Source: an uncultured Candidatus Peribacteria bacterium
GTDB lineage: Bacteria > Patescibacteriota > Gracilibacteria > BD1-5 > UBA6164
Length of the DNA: 64,000 nt
Direction of reading: 5' to 3'
Assembly: GCA_964404065.1 (NCBI GenBank)
Contig: CAYOIP010000001.1
Coordinates: 21,721-85,720, forward strand
The notes beneath the pieces were generated by a model that saw nothing but the letters and a program-made list of their open reading frames with translations, did not search any database and was not told the DNA's origin. The first letter of the stretch is position 1; each line of letters begins with the position of its first letter. The position numbers were made by a program, and so were the translations under genes. Below, piece after piece: positions 1 through 64,000 of the stretch.

Positions 1-471
1 GGTTTTTGTTATTTCACTATATTTTTCACTTGATTTCATAGAAATATAAACAATTCAATTATTATTCAATATTTCATAAAATTTATCAAATAGTTTAATA
101 GTTGTTTCTTTATCAGAGTGAATTAAAGAAGCAAAAGCAAAAATTATATCTAATTTTTTATCAAAGTTATATTCTTCAATATCTCAAACAATAAATTCTC
201 AATCTTGAAATTTTCATTTTGCATATTCTATAGCTTCTTTAGAGATATCAATTCAAACGTAATTTTTTGAAAAATTTCTTATATAAGAATATTCTCTTCA
301 AGAAAAACATCATATTTCTAAAATATTAATATCTATGCTTTTTCAAAATAGTTTTATTGCATTATCAATATCAAAGATTCTTGGTCAAATTTTATCAAAT
401 TTCTCTATTAATTCTTTAGTTTTTGAATTATAAACTTCAAAATTTAATTTTTTAACTTCTTTTTTAGTCAT
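1..471 (-). CDS. class I SAM-dependent methyltransferase; C-terminal part lies beyond the window start
   Basis: ATG at 471-469. Code-25 translation MTKKEVKKLNFEVYNSKTKELIEKFDKIGPRIF.... Motif I ILEIGCFSGRE (both Gly are TGA) and VGIDIS motif II. Confidence 0.65.
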
Positions 472-513
472 TTTGATTTTTTAAGATCTATTTTTTCTAT
501 AGTAATAGAAAAA

Positions 514-3162
514 TTATTTTTTCAAAACTAATTTATCATTTTCAATACTCAAAAGTACATCATCTCATGATTTTAATTCATCTTTTAATATAAAGTTTGA
601 AAGTTCATTTAAAACTATGTTTGTAATAGCTCTTTTCATAGGACGTGCTCAAAATTCACTATCAAATCAAACTTTTATTAAGTATTCTTTTAATTCTTTT
701 GAAAAATCTATTTTTATATTTTTAGCTTCTAATATTTTACAAACGTCTTTTAGTAATATTTCAACTATTTCTAAAATCATTTCGTGATTTATAGGATTGA
801 AAACTATTATATCATCTATTCTATTTAAAAATTCTGGTCTGAAATAATTCTTTAACTCTCATAACATTTCTTTATTTATTTCATCTTCTGATTTTTTTTC
901 TTCTATGAGAGAAGCAATTTTTTTACTTCAAATATTAGATGTTAAAATAATTATAGCATTTTTAAAATTAACAGTTCTTCATTTACTATCAGTTAATCTA
1001 CCATCATCAAGAACTTGTAAAAGTACATTAAATACATCAGGGTGAGCTTTTTCAACTTCATCAAAGAGAATTACGCTATATGGTTTTCTTCTAACAGCCT
1101 CAGTTAATTGTCCTCATTCTTCATATCAAACATATCCAGGAGGTGCTCCTATAAGTCTTTGAACAGAGAATTTTTCCATATATTCGCTCATATCAATTCT
1201 GATAAAAGCATCTTTAGAATCAAATAAATTTAGAGCTAGTGCTTTTGCAGTTTCAGTTTTACCAACTCAAGTAGGACCAAGAAATAAAAAGCTTCAAAGA
1301 GGTTTGTGTTCATCATTTAGTCAAGCTTTTGCTCTTTTAATAGCATTTGCAACTGCAAAAATGGCTTTATCTTGTCATACAACCGATTTTTTCAAATACT
1401 CTTCTAAATGCAATATTTTATCTTTTTCGCTTTGAACAAGTTTTGAAACAGGAATAGATGTCCATTTTGAAATTATTTCTGCAATATCCTCATCAGTTAC
1501 TTTATCTCTTAAATAAGATTTTCCTGAGTTTTTTATTTCTTCAAGTTTATTATCAATTTCAGAAATTTCTTTTTCTAGAGCAGGGATTTCAGAATAACTT
1601 ATTTTAGCTACTTCTTGGTAATTTGCTTCTCTTTCAAAAGTTTTTGCTTTTATTTTTAATTCTTCAATTTTTTCTCTTAACTGCTTTGATGCAACAATTA
1701 AATCTTTTTCTTTTTTCCAAGATATTTCTAAAGATTTATATTCTTCTTTTTTGGAAGCTATTTCGTGAGATAGTTTTTCTAATCCCCCCTCTAACTCCCC
1801 CCTAGCAGGGGGAGGAGGATTTTGGATTTTCCCCTCCTGCAAGGGAGGGGTTAGGGGAGGGGTATTTTCTGACTTCTTCGCCTCCAACTCTATCTCCAAA
1901 TTCCTTATTTTTTTCTCTAAAATATCAAGTTCAACAGGTTTTGAAATAGTTTTTAATTTTACTGAAGATAATGCTTCGTCAATCAGATCAATGGCTTTAT
2001 CAGGAAGTTTTCTATCAGTAATATATTTTATACTTAATTCAACTGCTGAAATTATAGCATTATCAGTTATTTTTATTCAGTGATGAGTTTCGTATTTATC
2101 TTTTATTCATCTAAGTATAGCTAGCGCATCTTCTCTTGAAGGTTCATCAACTAATACTTGTGCAAATCTTCTTTCTAAAGCTGGATCTTTTTCAATATAT
2201 TTTCTATATTCATTTATAGTTGTAGCTCAAATCAAATGCAAAGCTCATCTAGCTAAACTTGGTTTCAAAAGATTTCAAGCATCGGCTTGTCATTCCTGAT
2301 TTCAAGCTCAAACTATAGTATGAATTTCATCAATAAAAAGTATTATATTTCAGTTAGATTTTTCAACTTCTTTGATAACTGCTTTTAGTCTTTCTTCAAA
2401 TTCTCATCTATACTTTGCTCATGCAAGCAAAGCTCACATATCAAGAGTTATAATTCTTTTTCAAAGTAAATTTTCTGGAACTTCACGCTCAACTATTTTT
2501 CTAGCAATTCACTCAATAATTGCTGTTTTTCAAACTCAAGGGTCTCAAACTAAAACTGGATTATTTTTTGTCCTACGAGATAGTATTTGAATAGTACGTC
2601 TAATTTCTTCTTCTCTTCAGATTACTGGATCTATTTTTCCATTTCTTGCTTGCTCCACCAAATCTATTCAATATTTTTTCAGAGCATTTAGTTTATTTTC
2701 TGCGTCATTTGAAGTTACTTTTTCTCAATTTCTAAACTTTTCAATAACTTTTAAAATATCATCATATTTTATATTTAGAGTAGAGAATATGTTTTTTATT
2801 TTTTCGCTTCAAGATTTTAAAATTGCTAAAATAAGATGTTCTTCTGTTATAAATTCGTCTTTGTTTTTTCAAGCAATATTTTCAGCTTCTCTTAAAATGT
2901 CATTTAGAGGGTAAGAAATCCTCAAATCATAATGTCATTCAATTTTTGGGAAATTATCAATTTCTTTTTTAATACTTGATTTTAAAATCATTAAATCGGC
3001 TCCTAAATCAAGAAGTATTTCTTTTACAATGCTATCACTAGATTCAAGCATAGAGTAAAGTAAATGAAAATCAGTGATTTCAGGATTTTTTAAATTATTT
3101 GCAAGATTTTGGGCTTCTGCAATCCTAGAACTTGCATTTATGGTAAATTTTTCGATGTTCAT
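514..3162 (-). CDS. clpB: ClpB disaggregase (AAA+ chaperone), 882 aa, with a repeat-derived insert in the middle domain
   Basis: N-terminus [18 protein letters not shown].... NBD1 Walker A VGDPGVGKTA at ~2521-2550 has three Gly encoded by TGA. NBD2 FLGPTGVGKTE. C-terminus [15 protein letters not shown] then TAA. Standard-code fragments 1375-1899 and 2935-3162 are in the same frame. Confidence 0.95.
1784..1862. repeat. GC-rich palindromic element, double-arm copy A, inside the clpB CDS in frame
   Basis: cccccctctaactcccccctagcagggggagg-aggattttggatttt-cccctcctgcaagggaggggttaggggagggg. Two inverted units, each with its own hairpin. Read in frame as [32 protein letters not shown] (visible in ORF-track entry 1375..1899). 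Confidence 0.9.
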
Positions 3163-3255: not shown

Positions 3256-4221
3256 CTAATGATGGTGTTCATCGTGTCAATGTTCGTCATGTCAATGATT
3301 ATTATATTGTTCATCATGTCAGTCATTTGCAATCTTCTTTTTTCACTCAATATAAGCAAAGTACCGAACTGAAGTTTTAAATATTTCAAAAACTCATCAT
3401 AAATATCATAAAACTAGAATTAAAGCTATAAATATAATACTTAAAAGTAAAACTGTAATTATCAAAATAGCTTTAGTTGTGATAAAAGTAATTGCAGAAG
3501 CTATTAAAAAAGGGAAGAATAAAAATACTAAAAAGTTAATTATGATTCTTATATTTACTAAAAACATAAAAAAATATATTTTTGTTGTTGTTCTCAAATT
3601 TAAGATAGAAATTTTTATTGACTCAGAAATAGACTCTAAAGCTTTTTTATTGTTTAAAACTATTTCAAATCTAGCGTAAGCAAATAAAATATTTACTATT
3701 GTAGAAATAACAAGTAAAAATAAAAATACGTAACTTAAATATAAAATATATTCAACTCAAACAAATCTTAAACAAAAAAGATAAATATTCAAAAGACTCA
3801 TAAATTTGAACTGAGCAAAAATATTTCAAAATTCAAATAATGGCAAAAATCTATAAAGTCAGTTTCAAATACTATCAGATACGCTTACATAAGTTTCTAG
3901 AGTTTCTTTTTTTGAAATATACCAAATCAAGCCTCATTCAAAAATAGGCATAACTATCATATATAATACAAGAAGAATACTTCAAGAAATTAGTATTTCT
4001 GAAAAATATCAAGAGTGAAAAACATTTAATATAACTTTTAATGCTTTATCTTCTTGATGAAATAATTCAACATAAGTATAAATTGTTTGATAAACAAGTA
4101 TTATCATCAAAAAAATTATTGAGATAAGCCCAGGTATAAAATAAAATTTTTTTATTTTATGATCTTCATGCATTATATCTAGTGCTTTTGTGATAATATT
4201 TTTTTTAAGATTGTCATTCAT
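3256..4221 (-). CDS. multi-pass membrane protein of unknown function with a His/Asp/Glu-rich C-terminal tail
   Basis: Fragments 4009-4221 and 3406-3597 share a frame and join when TGA=Gly. Several hydrophobic spans. Ends ...NDGHDEQYNNHGHDEHGHDEHHH then TAG at 3258-3256. Confidence 0.6.
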
Positions 4222-6429: not shown

Positions 6430-6648
6430 TTATTTTATGAAAAAAAATACTAGAGAGTTTATAGTAAATAAAGTTCAAAGAACAATGGTTGTAATATGTA
6501 AAACTTTTTCTCATCATCTTTTTGTAACTTCTCACATTCATCCTCACATACTTGTAAGATTTAAAGAAACATTTTTATTTTGAACTAGTATTACAAGTAT
6601 AAGTAATATAGAAATAATTATTTGCGATATTGTTAAAGCAGTAGTCAT
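6430..6648 (-). CDS. secG: preprotein translocase subunit SecG
   Basis: 72 aa: MTTALTISQIIISILLILVILVQNKN...MGGGMGEVTKRGGEKVLHITTIVLGTLF. This is the SecG pattern (LLQ-like, Gly-rich loop, RG.E..L...T). Confidence 0.6.
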
Positions 6649-6651
6649 TTT

Positions 6652-7047: not shown

Positions 7048-7069
7048 AGTTTTAAAGTTAGAAAATATT

Positions 7070-10469: not shown

Positions 10470-10503
10470 CTAAAAATAAAAGGCTCGGAAAACCGAGCCT
10501 TTT
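10470..10503 (-). terminator. GC-rich intrinsic terminator of the standard-code cassette
   Basis: Minus strand: TGA-caaaaGGCTCGGttttCCGAGCCttttatttttag. This is the only GC-rich terminator stem seen in the window. Confidence 0.75.
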
Positions 10504-10504
10504 G

Positions 10505-11083
10505 TCATGTCATCATTGCAATTTGCATCACAATTGATAACACTACCCATTCAAATGTTACAGCAATTTCCCAAACATCTTTTTTTGTTATTTTTCTTCC
10601 TTTTGTTTCTATAAACAACTGGATTAACATGGATGAAAGTGCAATTCCATTTGCAATCCAAATAGTTACATCAACAGGAGGAGTTTTTAGATAATGCATT
10701 ACTCCTGGGAATACAACTACAATTGCAGCAACCATTAACGAAATTTGGGAAATGTTTTTATTTTTTTTATTCATATACCCAAAAATTGCTAATAGTAGAA
10801 CGCTTGAAAATACTAGCCCTTGAGTAGGATTTAATCCTATGTTTTTCATCCCACCTATGATGATACCTAATACAACACTTATATCACCTATCAGCATAAA
10901 TGAATAAAACTTCCAAGGACCATTATTTCTTTTCATAACTGCTATTTGTGCTATCATCAAGATTGTGAAACCTAACCAAGATAATAAAACGATATCATGG
11001 TTAGAGTGCTTGGTAGCATATATTGCTGGCAGAAATGATGCCATAGCCAACATATATGCAATATTTTGCAGTGACATGGTCAT
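10505..11083 (-). CDS. 7-TM membrane protein (possibly PQ-loop/SemiSWEET-like duplication) written in the standard genetic code
   Basis: The only long intact ORF in the supplied track (192 aa). 12 Gly all GGN, 5 Trp TGG, no internal TGA; ends in TGA at 10507-10505. AGGAG Shine-Dalgarno at ~11086-11090. SFLPAIYATK...LSW resembles a PQ-loop. Under code 25 it would read on to TAA at 10420-10418. Confidence 0.75.
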   Translation of the reverse strand: MTMSLQNIAYMLAMASFLPAIYATKHSNHDIVLLSWLGFTILMIAQIAVMKRNNGPWKFYSFMLIGDISVVLGIIIGGMKNIGLNPTQGLVFSSVLLLAIFGYMNKKNKNISQISLMVAAIVVVFPGVMHYLKTPPVDVTIWIANGIALSSMLIQLFIETKGRKITKKDVWEIAVTFEWVVLSIVMQIAMMT

Positions 11084-11178: not shown

Positions 11179-12357
11179 CTAATCTTTCCTCAAAAACCAG
11201 AAATAAACAGAGCTTAAACTAAAAAATAAAATTATTCATAGAACCAAAAATCCTAAACTATAAGATTTATTCATTATAAAAGCAATAGGAATCATTAAAA
11301 GTATTTGAATAATAGATGATAAAAATCATTTTATTGAAAGTATAGTTGATTTATATTTTTTTCATGGAATTAAGTTTATTATATGATCAGTATAAATATC
11401 ATACCTTCACCACATATATCAAATTACAACTGAAAATAATAGTCAAAGTAAATATGGATTTGTTATAAAATAGGCTCAAATATAATAAAAACTAAAAACA
11501 AAAATTTCAATTAACATCAATTTATGAAAATCAATTTTATCTTCTATCTTATGAGCAAATTGTCATACAATAAACCGAACAAATCTTGAAAGTCACATTA
11601 CAAATCATAAAAAAATTACTGGATAACCTAAACTTTCTAAATATGGAGTTCTAAAAGATCAATCAACTTGTAAAAATGCTATAATAACTGATGAAAATAT
11701 TATTACCTGAAATAATCATGTTCAAGAAGATAATTTTAAAGTTTCTTTTAAATTTTTTATATTTATTTTTTCATTTTCATGATGTTCTGATTTAACCGGG
11801 AAAAGTAAAAAAGCTACTAAAAGTCATATTATATCTATTCATAAAGCTATTATAAAAGGAAAAACTAAACTAATTTTTGTAAAAAAAGGTAGAGTAATTA
11901 TAAAAAATATACTTAAAAACGAAACCCATCATTTCATAGAAGATGAAATTTTTTTAAATTTACTTTCTTTTCAAAGAGATGTTAATGTATCATGTAAAAA
12001 GATTGAAGTATTTCATGTAGTAAAAGCATCTGCTCACAGTGCCATAAATATAGCTCAAGCAAAAAAATACCAAAAATTATCTCAAATAACAAACCATAAG
12101 CTAGATAATATTAAAAAGATTTTACTTATAATTATAGTAATTTTATTTCAAAATTTATCTCAAATATATCATGCAGGAAGCTGAAAAACTAAAGATGCAA
12201 TATATCAAGCAGTCATATAAAATCATATTTCCTGAGCTTGAGAGTTTTGCAAAGATAAATAATAAATACTCAAAATTGGAATAAAGTTTCTTCTTGAAGT
12301 GAAAAGTATTATAAAATGTTTCCAAATATTGGATTCAAGTCAAGTGAGTTTGAACAT
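11179..12357 (-). CDS. MFS-type transporter
   Basis: 392 aa, about 12 hydrophobic spans; motif-A-like GYIGDKFGNK. By hand count about 27 Gly are TGA versus 2 GGN. Confidence 0.65.
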
Positions 12358-12366
12358 TGCAAAAAA

Positions 12367-12392: not shown

Positions 12393-12398
12393 ATAAAA

Positions 12399-20723: not shown

Positions 20724-21716
20724 ATGAATACTTGAGATGTAAAAATTTATGAAACTACTGCTTGAAATATTGACGTTCAAGTTAATTTTAAAGAAGAAAC
20801 CGTTTGGCTGAATTCAGAACAAATAGCAACTATATTTTGAAGAGATAGATCTACTATTCAGAAACATATAAAAATGATTTATAAAAGATGAGAGTTAGAT
20901 GAAAAAACAACTTGTGCAAAAAATGCACAAGTTCGAATTGAATGATGAAGAAAAGTAAAAAGAGAGAAAAATTTATACAATTTTGACTTAATTTTAGCTG
21001 TTTGATATATAACTAACTCTACTGAAGCAATTAATTTTCGTAGATGGGTGAGTAATATATTAAAACAATATTTATTAAATTGATACGCTATCAATCAAAA
21101 AAGACTTCAAGAAAAATGATACAAAGAACTAGAAAATACTCTGGCTTTAGTGAAAAAAGCTATTTCTTCATGAGATATATGAAAAGATGAAGCTTTGTGA
21201 CTTTTAGATATTATTACAAAATATACTAATACTTGGCTATTACTTCAAAAATATGATGAAGATACTTTATCAGAAACAGGGAAAACAAAAGAAATTTATT
21301 ATAAACTACAAGCTAAAGAAGCATTGGAAAGTCTTGTAGAACTAAAAAAAGACTTGATAAAAAATTCACGCGCTACAGATTTATTTGCAAATGAAAGACA
21401 AAATTGATGAATTGAATGAATTTTTTGAAATATATATCAAACTTTTGGATGAATTGAACTTTATGAAAGTATTGAAGAAAAAGCAGCAAATTTACTTTAT
21501 TTTATAGTAAAAGATCATCCTTTTAGTGATGGAAATAAAAGAAGCTGAGCATTTTTGTTTATACTTTTTTTAGCAAAAAACAAAATACTTTTTGATGAAA
21601 ATGGTGAAAGAAAGATAAATGACAGAGCATTAGTTGCGATAACATTACTTATTGCTGAATCAAATCCAAAAGATAAAGACATCATGGTAAAGCTTGTTTT
21701 AAATTTAATAAATTAA
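20724..21716 (+). CDS. RhuM-family N-terminal domain fused to a Fic/Doc domain
   Basis: 330 aa. KIYETTAGNIDVQVNFKEETVWLNSEQIATIFGRDRSTIQKHIKMIYKRGEL is RhuM-like. HPFSDGNKRSGAF is the Doc-type Fic motif. Confidence 0.75.
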
Positions 21717-21956: not shown

Positions 21957-24569
21957 ATGAAAATAAAATTTATAAAAAATAGAGATGGGGATTTAATGAT
22001 TTTTGATAGAACTAGAATAGAAAGAGCTATTGAAAAAGCTGCTGAAGCGGCAAATCATAGTGATTTTTCTTTTATTGATCAAGTTGTTGATGAAATTATT
22101 GAGGGGTTAAAAGATATAGTTTTAGCTTGAGAAAATGAAAGAGTTTTAGAAATAGAAGAAATTCAAAACGTTGTAGAAAATAAACTTATGGAATTTGGTT
22201 ATTTTGATATAGCAAAAAAATACATCATTTATAGAGAAAAAAGAGCTTTTGAAAGAGATTTAAAGAAAAAAGAAGTTCTAGAAAAGTTGCTACAAAATAA
22301 ACTAGAGGTTACAAAATCAAATGGGGAAAAAGAAGTTTATGATGTAGAAAAAGTAAAAGAAACTTATAAAAGAGTTTCTTATGGATTGGCTAGAATTTGT
22401 AAATTTGAAGAATTAGAAAGTTCTTTAAATAAATATTTAGTTGATTGAATTAAAACAAAAGATATTTTAAAAATGATGATAAAATCATCTATTGACTTAA
22501 TCACTGTAGAAAATACTTCTTGGCAATATATTGCTTGAAGATTAACAACAATTGATTTGTATAAAGAAGCTTCAAATAACAGAAAAATAGATATTGAGGA
22601 TATCTATAAACCATCAACATATAAAGCACTTTTTGATGAATATATCAAAAATGGACTTTACTATAAAGATTTTTATAAATATTACTCGCAAGATGATATT
22701 TTAGAAGCATGAAAAAAACTAAAAAAAGACACTGATTTTACATACAATTATACAACACTTTTGATGTATAAAAAAAGATATCTTTTAAATCCAAATAAAG
22801 TTATAAAAGAACTCCCACAAGAAATGTATATGAGTGCTGCTTTATTTTTAGCAATTCCAGAGAAAAAAGAAGATAGACTTGAAACAGCTTTCAAAATATA
22901 TGAATACTGCTCAAAAGCAATGATTTCTCTTCCAACTCCAACATTACTTAATGCTAGAACAAATTTTCACCAATTATCAAGTTGTTTTGTTTTCAACGTA
23001 GAAGATGATTTAAGGGCTATTTATCATAATATAGAAAATATGGCTCAAGTATCAAAATTTGGTTGATGAATAGGAGTTTATTTATGAAACATCAGATCAA
23101 AATGATGAGCTATAAGATGAGTAAATTGAGTTGCTTGAGGTGTAAATCCTTGGATAAAAGTAATTAATGATACTGCGATTGCTGTAAATCAACTATGAGC
23201 GAGAGCTGGAAGTATAAGTGTAACTTTAGATATGTGGCATAGAGATATATATGACTTTTTAGATCTTCAAACTGAAACTTGAGACATCAGAAGAAAAGCA
23301 TTTGATGTATTTCCTGCAGTTTCTGTGCCAGATATGTTTATGGAAAGAGTGCAAAATAATGAAGATTGGACGCTGTTTGACCCAAAAGAAGTTAAAGATG
23401 TAACTTGAAAAGCTCTGCAAGACTTTTTTGGAAAAGATTTTGAGAAATTTTATATAGAATGTGAAAAAAATGAAAAATTAACTTTAAAAGAAAAAACAAA
23501 TGCAAAAGAATTATTTAAAAAATTCTTAAAATCAACTGTTGAAACAGGTATGCCTTACGTATTTTTTAGAGATACAGTAAATGAATTAAATCCAAATAAA
23601 CATGTTTGAAATATTTACTCAACTCAACTTTGTACAGAAATTTGTCAAAATACTTCTCCTTCAAAATTTGTAGAAGAAACTTTAGAAGATGGAGTAATTT
23701 CTATAAAATATACTCCCGGAGATAACGTAGTTTGTAATCTAACTTCTATAAATATTGCAAAAGTAAATGATGAAAAAACGATTGAAAAGGTTGTTCCAAT
23801 TGTTATGAAAATCCTTGATAATGTAATTGATTTGAATTTTTATCCAGTAAAAGAAACAGAAATTACAGCTAAAAAATATCGTTCAGTTTGAGTTTGATAT
23901 TTAGGACTAGCTGAATATTTAGCAGTAAATAAAATATCTTACGAATCAAAAGAAGCCAGAGAAATAGTTGATAAAATGATGGAAAAATTTGCTTATGAAG
24001 TATTTAAATCATCAAATGAATTAGCAAAACAAAGATGAAAATATCAAGTTTTTGATGGAAGTGAATATAGTAAGTGAGTTATTTTAGGTAAAGATGCAAA
24101 ATGGTTTAAAGATAATTCAAACATAAAAGATGATTGGTCAGAACTAATAAAAAATATTAAAAAAGACTGACTTAGATTTGCTTATCATATAGCTCCAGCT
24201 CCAAATACTTCAACAGCTTGAGTTGTTGGAACTACTGCAGCAATGCTCCCTATTTATAAAAAATACTTTGTTGAAACTAATTCTGTTGCTCCTTCTGTTG
24301 TTGTTGCTCCAAATCTAAATAGTGAAAATTTTTGGTATTATAAAGAATATGTAAATATGAATATGGCTGATGTAATTGATATGGTTTCAGTAATTTACAA
24401 ATGGGTTGATCAATCAATAAGTTTTGAATGGATTATAAATCCAGCAAAAGTTTCACCTCGCGAGCTATATGAATATTATATTAAAGCACATAAACAATGA
24501 ATAAAAACAGTTTATTATGTAAGAAGTATGAGTTTAGAAGTGAATGAATGTGTAAGCTGTAGTGGCTAG
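21957..24569 (+). CDS. nrdA: ribonucleotide reductase class I alpha subunit with an N-terminal ATP-cone
   Basis: 870 aa. ATP-cone [55 protein letters not shown] (Gly mostly TGA); QLCTEI; C-terminus ECVSCSG. Three ORF-track fragments share the frame. Confidence 0.95.
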
Positions 24570-24686: not shown

Positions 24687-25730
24687 ATGACACACGAAAT
24701 GTTAGCAAATCCTATATTTAATCCAGCTGGAAACGATGATGTTGCAAAAAGAACAATTATAAAATGAAATACTACTGGGTTATTTCAATTAAATGCAGTT
24801 AAATATACTTGGGCAAAAAGTATGTATCAAGTAATGATTTGAAATTTTTGGGTTCCAGAAAAAGTTTCAGGACTTTGAGAAGATGCAGTTCAATTTAAAA
24901 ATGCATTAAGCGAAGATGAAAGAAGAGCTTATAAATGAATTTTATCATTTTTAATATTTCTTGATTCAATTCAAACTGTAAATCTTCCAAATTTTAATGA
25001 TTATATAACTGCTCCAGAAGTGAATTTGATTTTATCAATTCAAGCTTATCAAGAAGCAATTCACTCTCAATCTTATGCTACTATTTTGGAAACTGTAGTT
25101 GATAGCAAAGATAGAGATGGAATTTATTATTTTTGGAGAGAGGATAAAAATTTACTTGAAAGAAATACTTTTATTTGATGAATTTATCAAGATTTTATTA
25201 ATAATCCAACTGATGAAAATTTCTTTAGATGAATAATTGCAAACTTTTTACTTGAAAGTATTTATTTTTATAATTGATTTGCATTTTTTGATACACTTGC
25301 TGATCAAACAAAAATGGTTGCAACAGATAGAATGATAAATTATATCAGAAGAGATGAATTAACTCATGTAACAATATTTGCAAATATTATAAAAGAAATT
25401 AAAAAAGAATTTCCAGACGTTTATAATGAAAAAATGATAAATGATATGATGGCAGTAGCAGTTGATCAAGAAATAAAATGGTCAAAACATATTTTATGAA
25501 AAAATATAATTTGAATGAGTCATATAAATATAGAGAATTATACTAAACGGCTAGCTAATAACAGACTTAGTATGCTTTGAATAAATCCATTATATCCAGA
25601 TGTGATAACTAATCCTTATAAGCATCTTGATAGATTACAAGATAATAACTCAGAAAAATGAAATTTCTTTGAATCAACAGTTACAAATTATTCACAATCA
25701 AGTTCTATGAACTGAAGTTGGGAATTTTAA
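24687..25730 (+). CDS. nrdB: ribonucleotide reductase class I beta subunit
   Basis: 347 aa. Iron ligand motifs QEAIHSQSY and RDELTHV; C-terminus NGSWEF. Confidence 0.9.
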
Positions 25731-27250: not shown

Positions 27251-28822
27251 ATGAAAAATTTTTTAATATCATTAATATCTGTATTACTTATAACTTGATA
27301 TGCAAGCGCTGCTTCAAATAGTTTATTTGAACAAATTTTTGATGGAACTAGTACTATTGATATTCCATCTGTTGTTAATAAACCATCAAGTATTTCAAGT
27401 TATAGTGTAAAAGTTATTGATGCTAATTTTGAGCAAATCAAAAATAGTTTAGTTAAATATTCTATTTCTAAAAGAATAGATATATATGATACTGCTATTG
27501 TAAAACTTCAAAAATTAGCAAATTCAAGAACTGTTAAATCAGAAAAAGATGCTTTAAATTACCTTAAAGGGTTAGCAAAAAAAGAAAAAGAATCTTTAGA
27601 AAAAGATACTTGATTGCTTATAGATTTATTTTGAGCTGATACAAGCATTTGTAATACTGATTATATTTTACAAGACTGAGATTGTGTAAAAAAAGTTTCT
27701 AAAACATATTCTTACGATGATAGCCTACCAAATAAAAGTTGTTCAGTTAGCAATGGTTATGGAAAACAATATTGGTATTGAACTTATTGGTCAAGTTGTC
27801 AAGTAAAATGATGTAATAGTTGATATTATATCTCAAATAATAGATGTGTAAAATGAAGTTCTTCTTCTTCAAGATATTATTCTGATAATTGTTATAATGA
27901 TGATTGTTCTTTAAGAACTACTTCTTGTTCAGTATATCATTGAGATGGAAAACAAGTTCGGGACTGAACAAACTGGTCAAAATGTTACGTAACTTCATGT
28001 GATAGTTGATATTATTTATCAGGAAATAATTGTGTTAATAGGTATGATTATAGATATGATTATGGAAATTGTTATAATGATGATTGTTCTTTGAGAACTA
28101 CTTCTTGTTCAGTTTCACATTGAGATGGACAAAAAGTTTGGGATGGAAATTCTTGGTCAAAATGTTATGTAACTTCATGTGATAGTTGATATCGTCTTTC
28201 AAAAAATTCATGTGTAAGAGATAGTTATTATTATGATTACAATGGAGATTATTACTGTTATGATTGAAGATGTGATTATGAAGATAGTAGATATTGTTCA
28301 GTAAGCCATTGAAGTTGAAGACAGTATTATAACTGATATAATTGGACTATATGTAGAGTTACATCATGTGATAGTTGATATTATGTTTCATGAAATAGCT
28401 GTGCAAGAGGAAATTACTATTATAACAATGATTATTACTATTATGATGACTATTATTATAATCATGACAATAATTACTGTTATGATTGAAGATGTGACTA
28501 TGAAGATAGTAGATATTGTTCAGTAAGTAATTGAAGTGGAAGACAATTTTATAATGGAAATTCTTGGTCTATTTGTTATGTAAATTCTTGTAATAGTTGA
28601 TATTATGTATCAGGAAATAGTTGTGTAAAAGATTATAGTAATAATTGTAATGGTTCTTCAATGCACTACGAAAATGATTCATGTTATGAAAATAATAGAT
28701 CTTGTTATATAGCATATTGAGTTTGAGAAAGAACATGGAATTGATCAAATTGGTCAGATTGTAGAGTTGTATCTTGTAATAGTTGATATTATAGCACTTG
28801 ATATAGTTGTTTAAAAAATTAA
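27251..28822 (+). CDS. secreted Cys/Tyr-rich tandem-repeat protein (523 aa)
   Basis: Signal peptide MKNFLISLISVLLITGYASA. About 6 repeats of C-S-V-x-x-G-x-G-x-x-x-W/Y-x-G-x-x-W-S-x-C-x-V-x-S-C-D/N-S-G-Y-Y-x-S-G-N-x-C with Tyr-rich linkers. Every codon was checked. Confidence 0.75.
27890..28547 (+). repeat. near-identical intragenic tandem repeats (180-bp period at 27890/28070; 222-bp period at 28253/28475)
   Basis: tgttataatgatgattgttcttt[a/g]agaactacttcttgttcagt... occurs twice. tactgttatgattgaagatgtga[t/c]tatgaagatagtagatattgttcagtaag occurs twice. Confidence 0.85.
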
Positions 28823-28825
28823 AAA

Positions 28826-28856
28826 AAATCAGTTTCTTTCGAAACTGATTTTTTTA
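28826..28856 (+). terminator. intrinsic terminator
   Basis: atcagtttc-tttc-gaaactgat followed by T7. Confidence 0.7.
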
Positions 28857-28867: not shown

Positions 28868-28946
28868 TGGAGCGAGGGACCAGGTTTGAACTGGCACACC
28901 CAAGGGTTGAAGCCTTAGTACACTCACTCTTTTATGTTACCCTCGC
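28868..28946 (-). tRNA. tRNA-Gly with anticodon UCA (reads UGA), CCA encoded
   Basis: GCGAGGG-TA-ACAT-AAAAGAGTGA-GTGT-A-CTAAGG-CT[TCA]AC-CCTTGG-GTGT-GCCAG-TTCAAAC-CTGGT-CCCTCGC-T-CCA. Cloverleaf with a 7-bp acceptor, a short variable loop, and the Gly identity set G1:C72, C2:G71, G3:C70, U73. Confidence 0.85.
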
Positions 28947-28966
28947 AAGTGAAAAATGTATGGGGA

Positions 28967-28994
28967 TTATATAAAAAAGTTTTTTTTTGTCAAA
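28967..28994 (-). promoter_or_regulatory. consensus sigma70 promoter TTGACA-16-TATAAT driving the tRNA
   Basis: Minus strand ttgacaaaaaaaaacttttttatataatcccc. The -10 box ends ~20 nt upstream of tRNA position 1. Confidence 0.6.
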
Positions 28995-33957: not shown

Positions 33958-35076
33958 ATGGTTAGAGTTGTTTGAATTGGTAGTGAAAAACAAGAATTAA
34001 GTTTAGAGTTGAAAAGTATGTATGAAGCATATTTTAAATCAAAAGAATTTGAACTTGCTTTATTAAATGTATTAAAACTTGATGAAATTTATGGAAAATC
34101 TCCAACTATTTTAGAAGTTTTTACAAAAATTTTTGATTGAGAAAATTTAGAAAATAATGAATTTTCTTTAGTAAAAAGAGTATTTTTAGATTCTTATTTT
34201 ATGGAATCTTTATCACAAACTTTATCTGATGAAGATTTTGAAATGTTTTTTTCATATATAAAAAAAACAAATTCTAATTTAGTACTAGCTAATTGATTTT
34301 ATTACCCTTCTTCTTCTTTTAAAAAGGAAAATAAAATAGTAGTTATAACATATATTGTATGAGAATTTTTATGAGCTATTAAAAATTCATATGTTTCAAA
34401 TTTAATAAATCAAACTACTACTCAAGTAGAATGAATTATTTGAGAATATGCTGGAGAAGAAATAGAAATTATAAAACAAGCAAAAAAATATAGTGTTATA
34501 AAAATTTGAGAAGAATACAAACTATATGACAATGAAACAAAAAAGATTTTATCAGAATATTTACTTTTAAATAAAGAAATTCTCACATTAAAAAATGGAG
34601 ATTTTGTAATGATTATTACTTCAAGAAGAGATATATTTGAACAATATGCTATTTCTTTAGAAACTTGAGAGCAAATTACTCCAAGTTTTCAAATTTCATA
34701 TGACATTGAAAAATATCCAACACAAACTGTTATTTTTATTAGAACTAATTCAACTTTAGAAAAAAAACCATATAGTTTAGAAACAAAAGATTTTTTGAAT
34801 CCTGAAGTTTTTCCAGTTCCAGAAAAAAAAGATTTTTTATCTATGGATGAAGTAGATGCTTTATTAAAATGAGTCACTGGAGAGCCAGGAGGAAAAGAAC
34901 TTGCATTTCCTGATGAAGATGAATGGGCTCGGGCAATAGCAGAAATGCAACAAGATTGACCAGATATAAAAATATTTGAAACTCCAATATTAGATGAAAT
35001 AGAAAGATGACTAAATTTTAAGAGACTAGATGAAATGTGTAATTGACAAGCAAAGCCGGAAGATATAAAAAATTAA
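33958..35076 (+). CDS. hypothetical protein (372 aa)
   Basis: Open under code 25 from ATG 33958 to TAA 35074-35076. No motif recognised. Confidence 0.5.
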
Positions 35077-39420: not shown

Positions 39421-41232
39421 TTATTTTTCTAATACTGCTTTTATTCTTCTAACTCATCTAGAACTGGCTTCTTCTTTTAAAATCTTAAATTTTCACATAA
39501 TTCCAGTATTTTCTACATGTGGTCATCCACAAAGTTCTCTTGAAAATATTTCTCAAGAAGGAGATTTAAATGTATAAACTTTTACGATATCAGGATATTT
39601 TTCCCAAAAACTTCATTCTACTCAGTTTTCTTTTGCAACATTTTTATCCATTTCTTCTAAAACAACTTCAGCTTGTGCTGAAATAGCTTGGTTTACATAA
39701 TCTTCTACTTCTTTCAATTGTTCAGGTGTAACTTTATCTTCATTTGTGAAATCAAATCTAAGTCTTTCAGCAGTTATATTTGATCCAGCTTGATGAACAT
39801 GATTTCATAGGACTTTTCTAAGTCATGCCAACATTAAGTGAGTAGCTGAGTGAAGAGCTGTTGTAGTTTCTGAGTGATCAGCTAATCCTCAAGCAAATTT
39901 TTGAGCAGCTCAAGCGCGTGATAATTCTTGATGTTTTTTAAAAGCTTCATTGAATCAATCAACATCAACTTTTAGTCATTTTTCTAAAGCTAACTCCTGA
40001 GTCATCTCAATTGGGAAACCAAAAGTTTGAAATAAATCAAAAGCTTCTTTTCAAGAAATTTCTGATTTATTCCCCTCTCCTTGCAGGAGAGGGGCTAGGG
40101 GTGAGGTTTTTTTATCAAACTCTCTCAATCATTTTTCTAATGTAGTTAAAAATTGTTTTTCTTCTCTATCAATCTCTTCTAAAATTATAGACTTTCTATC
40201 AAGTACATTTGTATAAATTGGTGAAAATTTTTCTATTACTTTGCTTGCAACTGGAGATAAAAATTGTCACTGAAATCCTAGTTTATATCATTGTCTGATA
40301 GCACGTCTTAAAAGTCTTCTTAAAATATATCATTGATCTACATTTGATGGAGTTACAGAGTCAGAAATCATTATAACAGAAGTTCTTAAGTGGTCTGCTA
40401 TTATTCTTACAGAATTTTTTGTATTTTCGTTATATTCAATATTTAAAGTTTTACATATAACTTCAATAATATCTGAAAAAATATCAGTTTCATAAACACT
40501 TGGAGCTCAAGTTAAAGTTCTTGTAATTCTTTCAAGTCACATTCATGTATCTACGTTTTGCATTGCTGCTTTATTAAAATTTTCATTTTCATCTTTAACA
40601 TATTCCATAAATACATTATTCCAGATTTCCATCCAGTTTTTATCATCATTTCAAACTGTGCTTTCTTTTGGTGGAAGTTCTTCTTTTCATACCCGATAAA
40701 ATATTTCAGTATCTGGTCAGCAAGGTCCTGTTGCTCCAGCTGGTCCCCACCAATTATCTTTTTTTCAAAGATAACTTATATTTGTAATTCCTAAACTTCT
40801 CCAAACATCAGCAGAAAAATCATCTTTTGGAGCATTCAAGTCTCACTCAAAAACTGTTACAGCTATTTTTTTAGGGTCAATTGCTAGCCAATCTTTTGAA
40901 GTTAAAAATTCATAAGACCATTTTATAGAATCTTCCTTGAAATAATCTCAAAGCGACCAATTTCCAAGCATTTCAAAAAATGTTAAGTGAGTATTATCTC
41001 AAACATCTTCTATATCTCAAGTTCTTATACATTTTTGATAATCAGCTAACCTTTTTCCAAGAGGGTGTTTTTCTCATAACAAATATGGAACCAAAGGTTG
41101 CATTCCGGCAGTATTAAATAAAACAGTTGGATCATTTTCAGGAACTACTGAAGCAGAAGGGATGATAGAATGATTTTTTGATAAGAAAAAATCAATATAT
41201 TTTTGTCTAATTTCATGACTTGTAATTTGCAT
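39421..41232 (-). CDS. alaS: alanine--tRNA ligase, short form (603 aa) with a repeat-derived insert
   Basis: The N-terminal two thirds was translated line by line. [27 protein letters not shown] (Trp=TGG and Gly=TGA in one motif), GPCGPDTEIFY, editing-domain HSATHLM and CGGPHV. Confidence 0.95.
40072..40106. repeat. GC-rich palindromic element, single-unit copy G, inside the alaS CDS in frame
   Basis: cccctctccttgcaggagaggggctaggggtgagg (24 of 35 nt are G/C by count). Translated as [12 protein letters not shown]. Confidence 0.9.
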
Positions 41233-46944: not shown

Positions 46945-47955
46945 TTAGTTTTTATGTAAATGTTTAATTGCATTCTCTGTGATTTTTCTTCCACGAGATG
47001 ATTTTTCTATAAATCAGATTTGAAGTAAATATGGTTCAACCACATCTTCAAGAGTTGCTTCTTCTTCTCAAATACTTGATGCGAGTGTTCCAAGTCCTAC
47101 AGGACCTCACGAAAATTTTAAATTTATTGTATCAAGATATTTTTTATCTAAATAATCAAGTCCAATCTCATCAATTCATAAATCTATAAAAATTTCTTTC
47201 CAAGTTTTTTGCTCATTTATATTGTGCCCTATAATTTTATAATCTCTAATAATTTTTAAAAGTCTATTTGAAATACGAGGAGTTCATCTACTTCTAGATG
47301 AAATTGCTTCAATTAAATCTTTTTGCATTTCTAGTTCTAGTATTGATGCATTTCTTACAAGAATTTTTGATAAATCACTTCCTGAATAAAAATCAAGTTT
47401 TAGAACATTTCCAAACCTATCTCTTAGAGGGCTAGATAATGCACTGAGTTTTGTAGTAGCTCATATTAAAGTAAAAGATTGAACTGGCATTCTAACACTT
47501 TGCGCTCAAGTTCATTTTCAAACAACAATATCTATAACAAAATCTTCCATTGCAGTATAAAGTATTTCTTCAATTTGTGGTTTTAAACGGTGAATTTCAT
47601 CTATAAAAAGTATGTCTCAGGCTTCAATATTTGATAATATACTAACAAGATCTGCTTGTTTTTCTATAGCAGGACCAGATGTGATCTTTAAATTGCTTCA
47701 CATCTCGCTTGCTATGATGTTTGATAAAGTAGTTTTTCATAGTCCCGGAGGTCAGTAAAAAAGAATATGCTCTAAAGCTGCATTTCTGAGTTTTGCTGAA
47801 GCGATTGAAACTCAAAGATGTTTTTTTATTTGTTCTTGTCCAACATATTCTCAAAGTGTTTTTGGTCTAAGAGAATTTTCATTTAGATCAATATCTTTTA
47901 CAGTAGTTTCAATAACTCTATCGGGTTTTTTAGTTTTTGATGAACTTAATGCCAT
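46945..47955 (-). CDS. ruvB: Holliday junction helicase RuvB
   Basis: [49 protein letters not shown]. 336 aa. Confidence 0.95.
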
Positions 47956-55373: not shown

Positions 55374-57725
55374 ATGTTAAAATACATAAAATTCACTTTT
55401 CTAATCATTTCTCTTTTATTTTCATTAAGTGTTTATGCTTGAGTAGTTCCTGGAACAATTATTAGTTCTACGCAAACATGAGGTTGATGATGTTGAAGTC
55501 AATCTTGTATTTTAAACTATACTTGTGCCTGTTGAAATGCAGTTGCTGATAGTATGAGTTGTTGAACTTATAATGATTCAGCTTGTTGAGATTCAGTCGC
55601 TGATAGTATGGATTGTGCTTGTTGGTCATCATACTCAACAAATAATAGTACAACACATTATTTTTCTTCAAATCTTTCAACAGATTCTACTAAGAGTTGT
55701 CAAGTTAGTTTTATTTGAAGTTATGAATGTTGAAATACATCTTGTTCTGCTACTACTTGATATAATACTGATATGTCTCCAAATACGGCATATCAAAACT
55801 CTATGCCTTCTTGGAGTTCATCAAGTCATTCTAGTTCTACTTGTAGTATGAGGTGAAGAACAGCAACTAATGATTCCTCAGTTCCAATAGCAACATTAAA
55901 TTGAGTTTCATCAGTTTTTACTTCAGATAATGATAAATGGTGTAATATAAAAAAATATAGATCTGAATCTTGATACACATATAAAGCAGATGAAAATCCT
56001 TGATGTGAAAGTTATAGAAAATCAAATACTACTGAAAATCCTTGAATATGAGAAGATTTATTAAAATGACTTGAAATAAATATACCTTGAGATGTTTCAT
56101 GAATATGAGAAGTTCAAGTGAGACTTTGAAATTGTAGTAAAACTTATAAAGTTACAAATCAAGATATAACTTCTTTAATAAATTCTTCATGAGTTTGGTA
56201 TAATCCAAATCAAAAAAATAGTTTTACAATTCCTTATAGTTGAAATATTACATGATGATCTTTTATGTGACAAAGTTGATTATTATGATCTTTTTGAGTA
56301 ACTAGGTTGGATCAATGTTTAGAAGAATGAAAAAATTCCATCTCAGTTTTGATAAAAGATATGGCAAGGAGTAATAGTGATTGACTTGTATTATCTGCAA
56401 ATGTATGAGCAAAATTTACTGCATGAACAATAAATATAGACAATTCAAATTCAAAACTTAACTTAACTTGAGATCTAGAAACTACATCATTAAGTTGAAC
56501 AACAGTTTCAGGAGGATTTAATGGAACACTAAGTAATTCTTGAGTTTGGAGAAACTATTCTTTGACTGGATGAATAAAATCAGTTGAAGAATATAGATGA
56601 TGAGCTTTTAATGAATGTAAAAGTTTTACTTGATCATTAACTTGAGACTGTAATACTAGTAGTGTTACGCCAAAACCAAGTGCAACTAATTGACTTGTAT
56701 GGACTGCACCAAGTTGAGTTCAAACAGATTGAAAATTTATGCAATTCAAATGTGATACTTTAGGTCCATTTCCAACAAGTGCTGAATGTGCAACTTGATG
56801 TCCTACTTGAAAAGAATGGAATGCAAACACTTGAAAATGTGAGGCAATAACTTGTAAAGCTGTAGTTTGATGAGTTGAAACTACAATTATAAATGGAACT
56901 AATTGAGTAGTAAATGCTGATGGAACTTGTGTAGCATATTGTATTCCAGGGCATAGTGTGAGTTGTGTAGTAAAAGAGTGATGAAGTCTTGCCTGAGAGT
57001 GTTGATCTGCAAATGGAACTATAGATAATAATAGTTTCCCACTTTTTACATCATTATGTAATAAATGAGTATTTGAAAAAACTGATGAAGTTTGAATAGA
57101 CTGAACTTATAATTGGAAATGTAAAACAGAAACATCTTTTGTAGATTGTAGTGCATATAAATCTTGTAATCTTCCTTGGGGGTGAAATATATTACATGGT
57201 CAAAGTGTTACAGCATATAAAGATTCAATAGTTCAATTAGCATCAGATTGTAGTTTTGAAATGAGAACATGTAATTATTGAATTTTAAGTGGATCTTATA
57301 CTAATCCAGTTTGTGGTAATTATTGTAACAATCAATCGTATGTTCCACCTCCATTTTCTAGATATATAGTTAATCCACCTAATAGTTCTGCTCAACGGAT
57401 TTCTAATTTACCAGATACTTATTGGTGAGCTAATTTTGTAGCATATAGGGATTTTTATGTATCAGAAGATTTACATAATGCAACTTTTTATATGGCATCT
57501 GATAATTATTGAGAAGTATTTTTAGATTGAGAATTATTATCTACTACGCCATCTAATTCATTTGAAACTAATTATTCAGTAATTACTAAACCTATTTTAA
57601 CAGCTGGTTTACACAAAGTTAGATTTGTTGTAAATAATACTCATAAACGGTGATGAGGTATATTTTCAATGCAAGTAAATGGTAGAGAAATTTGGAAAAG
57701 TGATGATAAATGGTGTATAGAATAG
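55374..57725 (+). CDS. secreted Cys-rich protein (783 aa) with a PA14-like C-terminal domain
   Basis: All codons checked. Signal peptide; many CxxC/CxxxC modules (CPTGKEWNANTGKCEAITC; CNLPWGGNILHGQSV...C). C-terminus NATFYMASDNYGEVFLDGELL...GLHKVRFVVNN...GGIFSMQVNG. Confidence 0.6.
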
Positions 57726-60471: not shown

Positions 60472-63400
60472 ATGAAATCAAAAAATAAGATAATTTTGAC
60501 TTTGTTGTCATTTATTATGCTTTCTCTCATTATACTTCCAAATCTCAAAGCTGATTTGGATGCCGAAAGCATTAAAAACGCTCAGATTTTAGCTGATGCT
60601 TGAGTTATAGTAAATAATTCATCTAATCCTAAAGCTTATAATCTAACTTCTTCTATAACTAGAAGGGAAATGTTAAAAGTTATGTTAAATTTAGCTTGAG
60701 TTACTCCAAGTCAGACTTGCGAGTGAAAATTTGCAGATATGCCAAAATCGGATTGGTGATGTAAATATGCTGAAACAGCTTTAAAACTTTGATATATTGC
60801 AGCGAATAAAAATTTTAGACCAAATGATTCTGTTTCAAAATCAGAAAGTTTAAAAATGATTTTTAAAGCAAAATGAATAACTGTTTCTCAAACTTCTGAT
60901 TGGAGAGTTTGATATATGCAAAAAGCAGTAGAGCTTTGATATTCTGAGAGTTTTTCAGATTATGATAGTGCTTGAAAAAGAAGTTTTGTATTTAATATAT
61001 GAGCAAAAACTATCTCTTCAAGTAAAATAAAAGAACAAGTTTTAAATTATGAAAAACCAAAAGTACTTTTAGCTTTTGCAGATAATATGAATAGAACATC
61101 AGTATTATCAAACTTAAAAGTTTATCCTGAAATAGCTTATACTACAAATTGGATAGATGATAAAAATTTAGAACTGGTAATTTCAGATTTAGTTAGAAAT
61201 GAAACTGATTTACTTGTAAATGTCCTTGATAGCGCTTTAACTTCATCTTGAGAAAAGCTTGAAGAAACTTATGTAAAAAAGTTTAAAATTGATGGTGAAG
61301 CTTTAATTGATTTTGTAACTCCATCTTGATTAGTAACTGATTTAAATCAAAATATTACCGTTCGTTTTTCAAAACCTATGGTTGCTTTAACAAATCTTGA
61401 TAATCAAGCAAAATGTCCAATTGAAATCACTCCTAAAATTTCAGGAAAGTGTGTTTGGATAACAACTTCTACTTTTCAATTTAGGCCTGAGAAAGGATTT
61501 CCAACTTGAGGAAAATATTTGATAAATATTCCTTCTTGAATAACTACAATTGCTTGAGATAAAACTATAAACTCAAAATCATTTGAAATAACAACACCTG
61601 ATTTTGCTTTAGTTTCAGATATAACTACACTTTGAGCAGACGAAAAATTAAATTTTGCTTTTAATGATGAAGTGAGTTTAGATAGTTTTAAAAACAATTT
61701 TAAATTATCTTCAATTTCAAATGACAGTTTAACTTTTTCTTATTATAAGTGAGAATCTGATTTGGAAGAAAATAAAAATATAATATCAGTTTATCCAAAA
61801 TCTTGAGATTGGTGATATGACAAAAACTATACATATTCTATTTTTAATAAACTTACTTCTTCAAGATGAAATGTTGGGTTAAAAAATACTATTTCAAAAA
61901 ACTTTACTACCAATGATTTTTTGGTTAGTTATAATCCAGTAGTATTTTTAAATGAAAATGCGGAAGAAAAATACGATATTTCAAATTTTAAACAATCGCA
62001 AAATAAGGATGTAATTACAATTTCAAATCCTTCTGTATTACTTTCTTTTTATAAAGAAATTTCTTTAGATAAAAGCTTATTTTCTTCAAATCTTCCTTTT
62101 GAATTACATTATGTAAAAACTTCAAATTATGATAATTGAAAGGTGGAATTATTAGAAGATAAAAAACAAGTTTTAATAATTTTTTCTTGAAGTGTAAATA
62201 GTAGTTTAACTTTTAAAATATTGCTTTCAAAAATATCATCAACTTCAGACAAAGTCTTAAATTTCAAAACAAAATCAAATAATTCTATTATTTCCTACAA
62301 ACAAGTAAATTATAAAAAAGCTTGTATAGAAACAAAAGAGGGAATTATTTCAAATCTAAATCAATATTTTTCTTTTGATAAATATGGAAAAGTTGATTAT
62401 GCGTATGAAGTTAATGAGTGGACTAAAGATAGTGACTGTTCTTACTTAGCTTGAAAACATAGATATATTTTAAATACAAGATTAAACCCTAGTTCAGATT
62501 ATAAATTAACAATAAAATCATCTCTTCCAGATTTAGATAATTATCCTTTAGATAAAGATTATAATTATAATTTTTCAACACCAAAAGCATTAAACGAAGA
62601 TAAAAGTGTTTCTATAATTGATTGAAGACAACTTGTTTTAGTTCCAAATGATGTAACTCCAATTTCAGTTTGATTACAATCAGTAAATTTATCACAAGTT
62701 TCTGCAAAAGTGTGTGTTGGAGATTTGGATATTTTATCAAATAGTTATTTAAAAAATGGAGATTGCGTTACAAAAACTATTAAACTAAATAATTTATGAT
62801 TTAAACCAAATATTTCTGTAATTGATTTAGAAAAAGTTTATGGGCAAATATTAGCAAAAAAATATATTACTTTAGAAGTTTCAAAACTAAGTGAAGATAA
62901 AACAAGTTATGAAGCTAAAAATGATTATTATATTCAGAAATCAAGTTTTGTTATAAGTGATATTTCTGCAACGATTAAATCAGCAAAAAATAATTTATTA
63001 TGGTTACATAACTATTCTTCTTGAGCTAATTTAACTGACGAAATAGCAAAAATTGAAAGCTTTAAAAAGGAAGCAAAATATTCAGTTTTTGGAAGTTATG
63101 AGTGAGAAAAAGTAACTTTAGATAAAAATATTTCATTTTCTGCTAAATCTGATTGAATGTATGAACTTGGAGAATCAAATTTCAATACTTTATTAATTAC
63201 TCTAAAATCTTGAGAACAAGTAATTTTAGATAATGTTTATAGTTATTACTATGCAAACCAAAATATTTATAATTACATAACAACTGATAAACCAGTTTAC
63301 AAGGCTTGAGAAAAAGTTCAAATTTCAGGAATTTCAAGAATATTGTCAGCAAAATGATACACTATAAATACTTCACCTGTTCAAGTTTATGTAAGAGATA

Positions 63401-64000
63401 GCCAATATAAAGAAATATTAAATAAATCAGTTTCTCTAAATTCTCTTTGAGCATTTGATTTAAGTTTTGATTTAAAATCAGATACAAAACTTTGAAATTA
63501 TACAATTGAAGTTTGAGGAAACTCTCTTAGCTTTGCTGTTGAAGAATATGAAAAACCAGATTTTAAAGTTGAATCAAAATCTAAAAAAGATAGTTATGTA
63601 TTTGGTGAAACAGCAAAAATAGATGTTGCTTGAGAATATTATATAGGACTTCCATTATCTAACTGAGAATGAAGTTATAATTTAACGTCTTCAGAATTTT
63701 ACTTTGATTGATGAAAGACAACTTGATATGATTTCTGAGAACAAAATAATTTCTGGTGGGGTATAAGACCAATGTCTTCAAAACTTGGATGAGTTTATTA
63801 TTGAGATAACAATACAGAAAAAACTTGAAAATTTGTTTTATGAGCTGATGGAAAAACTACTATAGATTTACCTTTAGAGGACTCTACTAAAGATAAAATC
63901 TATACAGTAAGTTCTACAGTTACAGATCCAAATACTAAAAAATCAATTTCAAATAATGCTACTTTTAAAGCAATAAGAAGTAAAACTTTCTTATGAATAA
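60472..64000 (+). CDS. SLH-like N-terminal domain + bacterial alpha-2-macroglobulin family protein (3' end beyond the window)
   Basis: All codons to the window end were checked. Signal peptide. SLH-like KFADMPKSDWGCKYAETALKLGYIAANKNFRPNDSVSKSESLKMIF. MG-domain hallmark FAVEEYEKPDFKVES. ORF-track fragments 61921-62139 and 62221-62454 are in frame. Confidence 0.7.

Follow-up and report, generated by a model that had tools for sequence, protein, structure and literature searches.

Probable two-way recoding in an uncultured AT-rich Gracilibacteria-group chromosome: UGA as glycine and CGG as tryptophan

We analyzed the genetic code of a 64,000-nt segment of contig CAYOIP010000001.1 (hereafter “the window”; 24.4% GC), which comes from an uncultured bacterium that, judged from its sequence, is a member of the Gracilibacteria group (Patescibacteria, or candidate phyla radiation [CPR]). 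In this window UGA almost certainly encodes glycine, and comparison with orthologs indicates that CGG very probably encodes tryptophan in the lineage to which the window belongs. Both changes together, with UGA read through a tRNA-Gly(UCA), very likely make up a two-way recoding of this AT-rich chromosome. The original prediction, which was made from the letters of the window, had read all of it with translation table 25, the code of SR1 and Gracilibacteria (Campbell et al. 2013 and Rinke et al. 2013, cited in PMC8629427). Its identification of UGA as glycine, a published feature of table 25 already known for Gracilibacteria and Absconditabacteria, is supported by the results below, and its reading of the remaining codons needs revision at CGG.

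Under the standard code, stop-to-stop open reading frames (ORFs) of at least 100 amino acids cover 16% of the window. Only two ORFs of at least 150 amino acids are found with translation table 11, and the longest from start to stop has 192 amino acids (10505..11083, minus strand), the same maximum as given in the original prediction. Reading TGA as a sense codon yields a greedy set of 47 non-overlapping ORFs of at least 100 amino acids that covers 93% of the window. The gaps between them hold about four to six further ORFs of 44 to 72 amino acids, in agreement with the earlier count of about 51 genes. Among the 47 are 45 complete genes, 34 ending in TAA and 11 in TAG. Such endings follow by construction once TGA is taken as sense, and full-length NCBIfam models provide a check that is not circular. 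The models named ClpB, RimO, YbeY, NrdA, NrdB, RecA, RsmH, RecR, pyruvate kinase, YvcK, AlaRS and RuvB. In detail, matches extended over residues 6-880 of 882 in ClpB, 2-324 of 327 in RecA, 4-341 of 347 in NrdB, 4-602 of 603 in AlaRS, 22-335 of 336 in RuvB, 11-317 of 318 in RsmH and 2-200 of 202 in RecR. As the models extend almost to the TAA or TAG codons, these are real terminators and an in-frame TGA is not a protein end, as the original prediction had proposed.

The 19,857 in-frame codons counted in the window include 1004 TGA (5.06%), 323 GGN (1.63%) and 132 TGG (0.66%). TGA thus accounts for 76% of all Gly codons once it is assigned to glycine, and TGA and GGN together amount to 6.7%, a normal glycine content. 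Assigned to tryptophan, TGA would raise Trp to 5.7% and leave 1.6% Gly. We used a code-neutral test in which TGA, CGG and CGA were masked and the window proteins were aligned to DNA-translated orthologs from standard-code bacteria (80 RecA, 116 AlaRS, 30 NrdB, 19 NrdA and 11 RimO). The contig scans with RecA and AlaRS had returned mostly standard-code bacteria rather than close relatives, and these served as the standard-code references. Among the 100 alignment columns opposite a window TGA, 77 were conserved (at least 70%), and the conserved residue was Gly in 75, Thr in one, Ala in one and Trp in none. A tabulation of this kind had been suggested with the original prediction, and Gly dominates it rather than Trp, gaps or protein ends. 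In the same alignments, TGG stands at all 17 conserved Trp columns. Other codons with conserved columns have their standard meaning, CGG apart; CAG and ACC had no conserved columns. Viewed from the other side, the conserved Gly columns are written in the window as TGA (75), GGA (25), GGT (9), GGG (4) and GGC (1), with non-Gly codons at 12. RecA contains 28 TGA codons, 24 of which stand where Gly is the commonest residue among the 80 bacteria. Moreover, phmmer alignments to PDB chains of RecA, AlaRS and NrdB agree residue by residue with TGA as glycine, and Gracilibacteria orthologs have TGA or GGN at the TGA sites of the window. The five motifs quoted in the original prediction, in ClpB, RecA, RuvB, NrdA and AlaRS, are all present codon by codon as claimed. 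Their positions were correct to within a few bases, those of ClpB (given as 2521-2550) and NrdA (given as about 23060-23085) being adjusted in Table 1.

We identified a candidate decoder of UGA in the only tRNA that ARAGORN found in the window, a tRNA with the anticodon UCA that the program labelled tRNA-SeC from the anticodon alone. Its acceptor stem (GCGAGGG/CCCTCGC) gives the pairs G1:C72, C2:G71 and G3:C70, the discriminator base is U73, and the tRNA has CUUCAAC as its anticodon loop and a variable loop of 5 nt. These are the glycine identity criteria used in PMC8629427 (G1:C72, C2:G71, G3:C70, U73). A whole-window Rfam search at the gathering threshold missed this tRNA; when its 211-base neighbourhood was searched, RF00005 matched with 44 bits (threshold 29) and all 71 model positions were aligned. 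The key tRNA would thus be missed or misnamed by automated pipelines. The copy in one relative (locus L221) is identical at 79 of 79 nt even though the orthologous proteins are about 72% identical, which argues for strong functional constraint. We suggest that UGA is decoded by this tRNA-Gly(UCA), whose acceptor-stem and discriminator elements would be recognised by bacterial GlyRS, and that termination would proceed through UAA and UAG only, with release factor 2 presumably absent. Neither the window nor the fetched loci, which are parts of genomes only, contain a class-I release factor motif.

Two other readings of UGA have essentially no chance of being correct. A mycoplasma-style code (table 4, UGA as Trp) could be suspected because the genome is small and AT-rich, like those that use table 4, and because a public protein collection translates this contig with TGA as Trp: its copy of the protein encoded at 55374-57725 (P0001) has W at 65 of 65 TGA positions, and all 65 differences from the table 25 translation are W for G. 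The ortholog alignments rule this reading out. The conserved columns opposite TGA are overwhelmingly Gly and never Trp, the Trp content would be as high as calculated above, and within a single AlaRS motif TGG and TGA stand for different residues. In addition, the tRNA(UCA) carries U73 together with G1:C72, whereas tRNA-Trp typically has G73. The original prediction had excluded code 4 with the AlaRS motif, and we reach the same conclusion. The remaining alternative, UGA as stop or selenocysteine, would make the window a set of pseudogenes or selenoprotein genes. The ARAGORN label points that way, but the 1004 in-frame TGA codons include conserved Gly sites of full-length housekeeping genes, and the tRNA, with its 79 nt, 5-nt variable loop and U73, is without the long extra arm of tRNA-Sec. 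We consider this alternative ruled out by these TGA sites and by the shape of the tRNA.

The second change concerns CGG, which occurs nine times in the counted codons of the window (4.5 per 10,000), whereas CGA occurs once. In the other four-codon boxes, codons ending in A exceed those ending in G, from about 4-fold (GGN) to 19-fold (TCN). About 84% of the Arg codons of the window are AGA, and the conserved Arg columns are written as AGA (53), CGT (4), AGG (2) and CGC (1), never as CGG. The CGG codons have AT-rich flanks and lie outside GC-rich palindromic elements, except for the one at 10493-10495, which is inside a terminator hairpin. Two contigs of independent Logan assemblies of run SRR5011273 (17.1 and 10.7 kb) are 100% identical to the window and reproduce the CGG codons at 3366, 11577, 57396 and 57648.

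Five of the nine CGG codons can be compared with homologs, and all five are at Trp positions (Table 1). The clearest case is residue 286 of the conserved Gracilibacteria protein encoded at 3256-4221, which is TGG in 65 and CGG in 10 of 75 orthologs from species-representative genomes, with no other codon. Among 106 database proteins, the same residue is W in 56 and R in 50, the pattern expected if “R” merely reflects how pipelines translate CGG. At NrdB residue 288, the ortholog codons are TGG (41), TAT or TAC (10), CGG (2), TTT (1) and CAT (1), and no Arg codon occurs; PDB homologs have Tyr at this position. The window has TAT CGG GTA TGA around AlaRS residue 180; the corresponding codons in the closest relative, L138 (83% identical and also recoded), are TAC TGG GTA TGA. 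In the repeat protein encoded at 27251-28822, the repeat DGKQV[CGG]DGTNW is next to the near-identical repeat DGQKVWDGNSW, in which the W is TGG; W, W, Y and Y occupy this place in the remaining four. Residue 277 of the MFS transporter is W in 16, R in 2, Q in 1 and A in 1 of the 20 closest cluster representatives, which include homologs without any sign of translation with TGA as W. A scan with the MFS protein gave no matches.

The DNA of relatives extends this pattern. A scan with NrdB recovered 57 loci; nearly all bear the names Candidatus Gracilibacteria or Patescibacteria group, or else labels, such as Peribacteria, that are evidently automatic. The closest of these have NrdB proteins up to 96% identical and nrdAB genes 84-91% identical in DNA. 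Scanning with the aligned family of protein 3256-4221, which is lineage-specific, gave 76 loci, mostly from Candidatus Gracilibacteria or the Patescibacteria group and including the complete genomes HOT-871 and 28_42_T64. Synteny around nrdAB (21700-25750) breaks at both operon ends even in the closest species, and orthologs of its neighbours (25751-27043 downstream and 20724-21716 upstream) were found in 0 of the 57 loci. Around alaS, synteny with L138 extends for about 20 kb. We anchored the codon families for relatives on real genes of the window. In more than 20 low-GC related loci, CGG occurs only at Trp columns (four different columns, in two groups of genomes); in higher-GC relatives it occurs only at Arg or Lys columns. 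An all-against-all tally over six-frame ORFs of the relatives had hinted that CGA stands at Leu columns and that standard-code genomes have CGG at Trp columns. It was discarded because these signals came from spurious short off-frame or antisense ORFs.

If CGG still encoded Arg, as in table 25, the CGG codons at Trp sites would be real Trp-to-Arg substitutions. This is the published code for the group, many higher-GC relatives use CGG for Arg, and the case for Trp is carried by five codons. We nevertheless regard it as very unlikely, as all five comparable CGG codons occupy Trp or aromatic sites, with no Arg site among them. Moreover, the invariant Trp site has CGG in 10 species and AGA in none, although AGA makes up the great majority of Arg codons. 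Trp-to-Arg is a radical replacement, and its repeated tolerance at conserved Trp positions is improbable. Plain table 25 would therefore mistranslate CGG as Arg; its assignment of standard meanings to the other 63 codons does not hold here owing to CGG, so that the part of the original prediction that concerned UGA stands and the part that adopted the rest of table 25 does not. We give a small chance to a state of transition, in which CGG would be read either as both Trp and Arg or inefficiently, and would survive only where TGG had mutated to CGG. The rarity of the codon is consistent with such a state, as is the “complicated history” of CGG in Gracilibacteria described by Shulgina and Eddy (PMC8629427), and no decoding tRNA was seen in the window or the flanks of relatives. 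However, several species with orthologs about 69-72% identical to the protein of the window have retained CGG at one invariant Trp site, which indicates that reading it as Trp has been acceptable over the long term.

Several observations weigh against CGG as Trp and against recoding of the entire window. The comparison covers five of the nine CGG codons. At AlaRS residue 180, Asp predominates across the wider family (D 75, W 21, I 14, Y 3, V 1, E 1, R 0), so support for Trp at this site comes from the closest relative and the 21 family members with W. No tRNA(CCG) or tRNA(UCG) was detected in the window or in about 1.5 Mb of flanking DNA from relatives, and the Logan contigs, which extend 1.8 kb beyond the window, add no tRNA. 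The evidence is comparative throughout, and one gene of the window (10505-11083, see below) looks as though it evolved under the standard code. We retain the assignment to Trp of CGG, which would be read by a tRNA(CCG) charged by TrpRS.

We checked whether CGA shares the change. The only CGA among the counted codons encodes residue 71 of a RhuM/Fic/DOC family protein, at a column where five standard-code homologs have S, A, G, R and T; the locally most similar homolog has R. In related metagenome-assembled genomes (MAGs), CGA occurs at 221 R and 48 K columns and at no W column, including three CGA codons in relatives in which CGG is Trp. This argues against CGA as Trp in the lineage. CPR bacteria are reported to be without inosine tRNA and to read CGA and CGG via tRNA(UCG) and tRNA(CCG) (PMC8629427); given this shared reading, splitting the two codons would need a tRNA arrangement that has not been described. 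The near disappearance of CGA, with one codon left, would be consistent with loss of tRNA(UCG), and one possible arrangement is that this tRNA was lost and CGA was driven near extinction.

The gene at 10505-11083 departs from the rest of the window. It has 12 GGN codons and no internal TGA, for which the chance is about 3-4e-8 given the share of TGA among Gly codons elsewhere, and its GC content at third codon positions is 0.26 (0.045-0.18 in other genes). It ends in TGA (10505-10507), followed one codon later by a GC-rich hairpin, AAAAGGCTCGG-TTTT-CCGAGCCTTTT (about 10478-10503), and a T-run. With UGA as glycine, the gene would be extended by 28 codons to a TAA at 10418-10420. Its codon usage and its ending suggest that it was probably acquired recently from a donor with the standard code. 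No homolog or donor was found in phages, plasmids, PHROGs or Pfam. The claim that the whole window is recoded must be qualified for this gene. In combination with the CGA results, we tentatively propose a lineage of more than 20 species-level MAGs with reassignment to Trp of CGG only, on top of UGA as glycine, with CGA remaining Arg or unassigned, in which the genome would also retain one or more recent standard-code imports, among them 10505-11083, with its UGA stop now read through. We consider this full combination possible, though doubtful.

Table 1. Positions of the features discussed, in window coordinates
Feature	Position	Strand	Remark
Gene-dense segment, Gracilibacteria-type	1..64000	.	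Read with UGA as Gly and, very probably, CGG as Trp
ClpB Walker A, VGDPGVGKT	2524..2550	-	GTT TGA GAC CCT TGA GTT TGA AAA ACA; 3 of 3 Gly codons are TGA
RecA P-loop, YGPESSGKT	31939..31965	-	Gly codons TGA, then GGT
RuvB Walker A, YGPPGLGKT	47731..47757	-	Gly codons TGA, GGA, TGA
NrdA, SKFGGGIGV	23052..23078	+	Gly codons GGT, TGA, TGA, GGA
AlaRS, GNWSLGDY	40942..40965	-	GGA AAT TGG TCG CTT TGA GAT TAT; Trp is TGG, Gly is TGA
tRNA-Gly(UCA), predicted UGA decoder	28868..28946	-	79 nt, CCA encoded; ARAGORN and Rfam RF00005
Putative promoter before the tRNA, sigma-70-type consensus	28966..28993	-	TTGACA, 16 nt, TATAAT; 12 of 12 matches
Terminator-like hairpin, T-runs on both strands	28822..28855	.	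Between the tRNA and the end of gene 27251-28822
CGG, residue 286 of conserved Gracilibacteria protein 3256-4221	3364..3366	-	Invariant Trp site
CGG, NrdB residue 288	25548..25550	+	Trp/aromatic position
CGG, AlaRS residue 180	40693..40695	-	Trp in closest relative
CGG, residue 237 of Cys/Trp-rich repeat protein 27251-28822	27959..27961	+	First W of repeated W-x4-W
CGG, residue 277 of MFS transporter 11179-12405	11575..11577	-	Motif SRFV[CGG]F
CGG in orphan gene 33958-35076	34930..34932	+	Only database match is the window's own protein
CGG, residue 675 of gene 55374-57725	57396..57398	+	Homologs found leave residue uncovered
CGG, residue 759 of gene 55374-57725	57648..57650	+	Homologs found leave residue uncovered
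CGG within terminator hairpin	10493..10495	-	Read-through extension of gene 10505-11083
Only CGA among the 19,857 counted codons, residue 71 of RhuM/Fic/DOC family protein	20934..20936	+	Variable column
Standard-code-like gene, 192-amino-acid membrane-like protein	10505..11083	-	12 GGN Gly codons, 0 internal TGA

When examining the context of these features we noted several further genes. The protein encoded at 27251-28822 (plus strand) consists of six Cys-rich repeats of about 60 amino acids each, with the core C-S-V-x-x-G-x-G-x-x-x-[W/Y]-x-G-x-x-W-S-x-C-x-V-x-S-C-x-S-G-Y, and has a hydrophobic N-terminus; it is probably secreted. It had no Pfam or NCBIfam match and no ortholog among the fetched relatives. 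The orphan gene 33958-35076 (plus strand, 372 amino acids) is located between recR and the small gene 33497-33865, which follows rsmH. In the syntenic relative L138, the counterpart of 33497-33865 adjoins recR directly and the orphan is missing. A database search with the orphan matched only the window's own protein in the public collection (P0263), which derives from the same translation with TGA as Trp. The RhuM/Fic/DOC family protein encoded at 20724-21716 (plus strand) has 40-46% full-length identity to plasmid-borne homologs of Proteobacteria, and it adjoins type I restriction-modification genes in two of the plasmid homologs retrieved. Beside rimO, the small gene 6652-7086 (minus strand) has a Phage_holin_4_2 (PF04020) match in the precomputed annotation of the protein collection, and it overlaps opposite-strand ORFs of 132 (6437-6835) and 144 amino acids (6836-7270). 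Among the relatives, ARAGORN predicted a tRNA with the anticodon AUU, labelled Asn, at 1479-1556 (minus strand) of locus L007, from the Gracilibacteria MAG ALOHA_ZT_17. As anticodons with A34 of this kind are unusual, the prediction may be a mis-call or an odd tRNA.

The proposed code shares features with several known ones. Like table 25, it has UGA as glycine, a tRNA-Gly(UCA) with the identity elements listed above, and UAA and UAG as the only stops, and like table 25 organisms the source has an AT-rich genome and Gracilibacteria relatives. It differs from table 25, in which CGG is Arg, by the five comparable CGG codons at Trp sites. Using Codetta, Shulgina and Eddy (2021, eLife; PMC8629427) predicted UGA as glycine together with both CGA and CGG as Trp in Absconditabacteria, a case repeated in later surveys. 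CGG as Trp in some Gracilibacteria was also predicted by Codetta and was raised there only as a possibility (PMC8629427). The window resembles the Absconditabacteria code in UGA as glycine and CGG as Trp, in its very low GC content, in the rarity of CGN codons and in AGA as the main Arg codon. It differs in that there is no sign of CGA as Trp in the window, where the single CGA is at an uninformative site, or in related MAGs, and in that the relatives found all carry the name Gracilibacteria and not Absconditabacteria. As in Anaerococcus and Onthovivens (Bacillota; PMC8629427, PMC13092985), only CGG would have changed to Trp, GC content is low and CGG is very rare. However, those genera belong to an unrelated phylum, UGA is not reassigned in them, and their tRNA(UCG) is missing while an inosine tRNA reads CGA; CPR bacteria, as stated above, are reported without an inosine tRNA (PMC8629427). 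Table 4 organisms (Mycoplasmatales, Entomoplasmatales and some insect endosymbionts) likewise have UGA as a sense codon in small AT-rich genomes, but in the window UGA aligns to Gly and never to Trp. The code of the window is therefore a further case of an already described kind.

Gene calls, family assignments and structure predictions for this genome hinge on the code chosen. The standard code shatters the genes, table 4 turns about 5% of residues into Trp, and table 25 would place Arg at conserved Trp sites. Many Gracilibacteria homologs in the public collection carry W in place of G at TGA (74 of 106 for the protein 3256-4221), and sequence and structure searches with such proteins are thus biased. 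The DNA of more than 70 related genomes provides comparative evidence that CGG as Trp may reach Gracilibacteria proper. That CGA does not appear to share the change of CGG would inform how codons of one box that share a wobbling tRNA can be separated.

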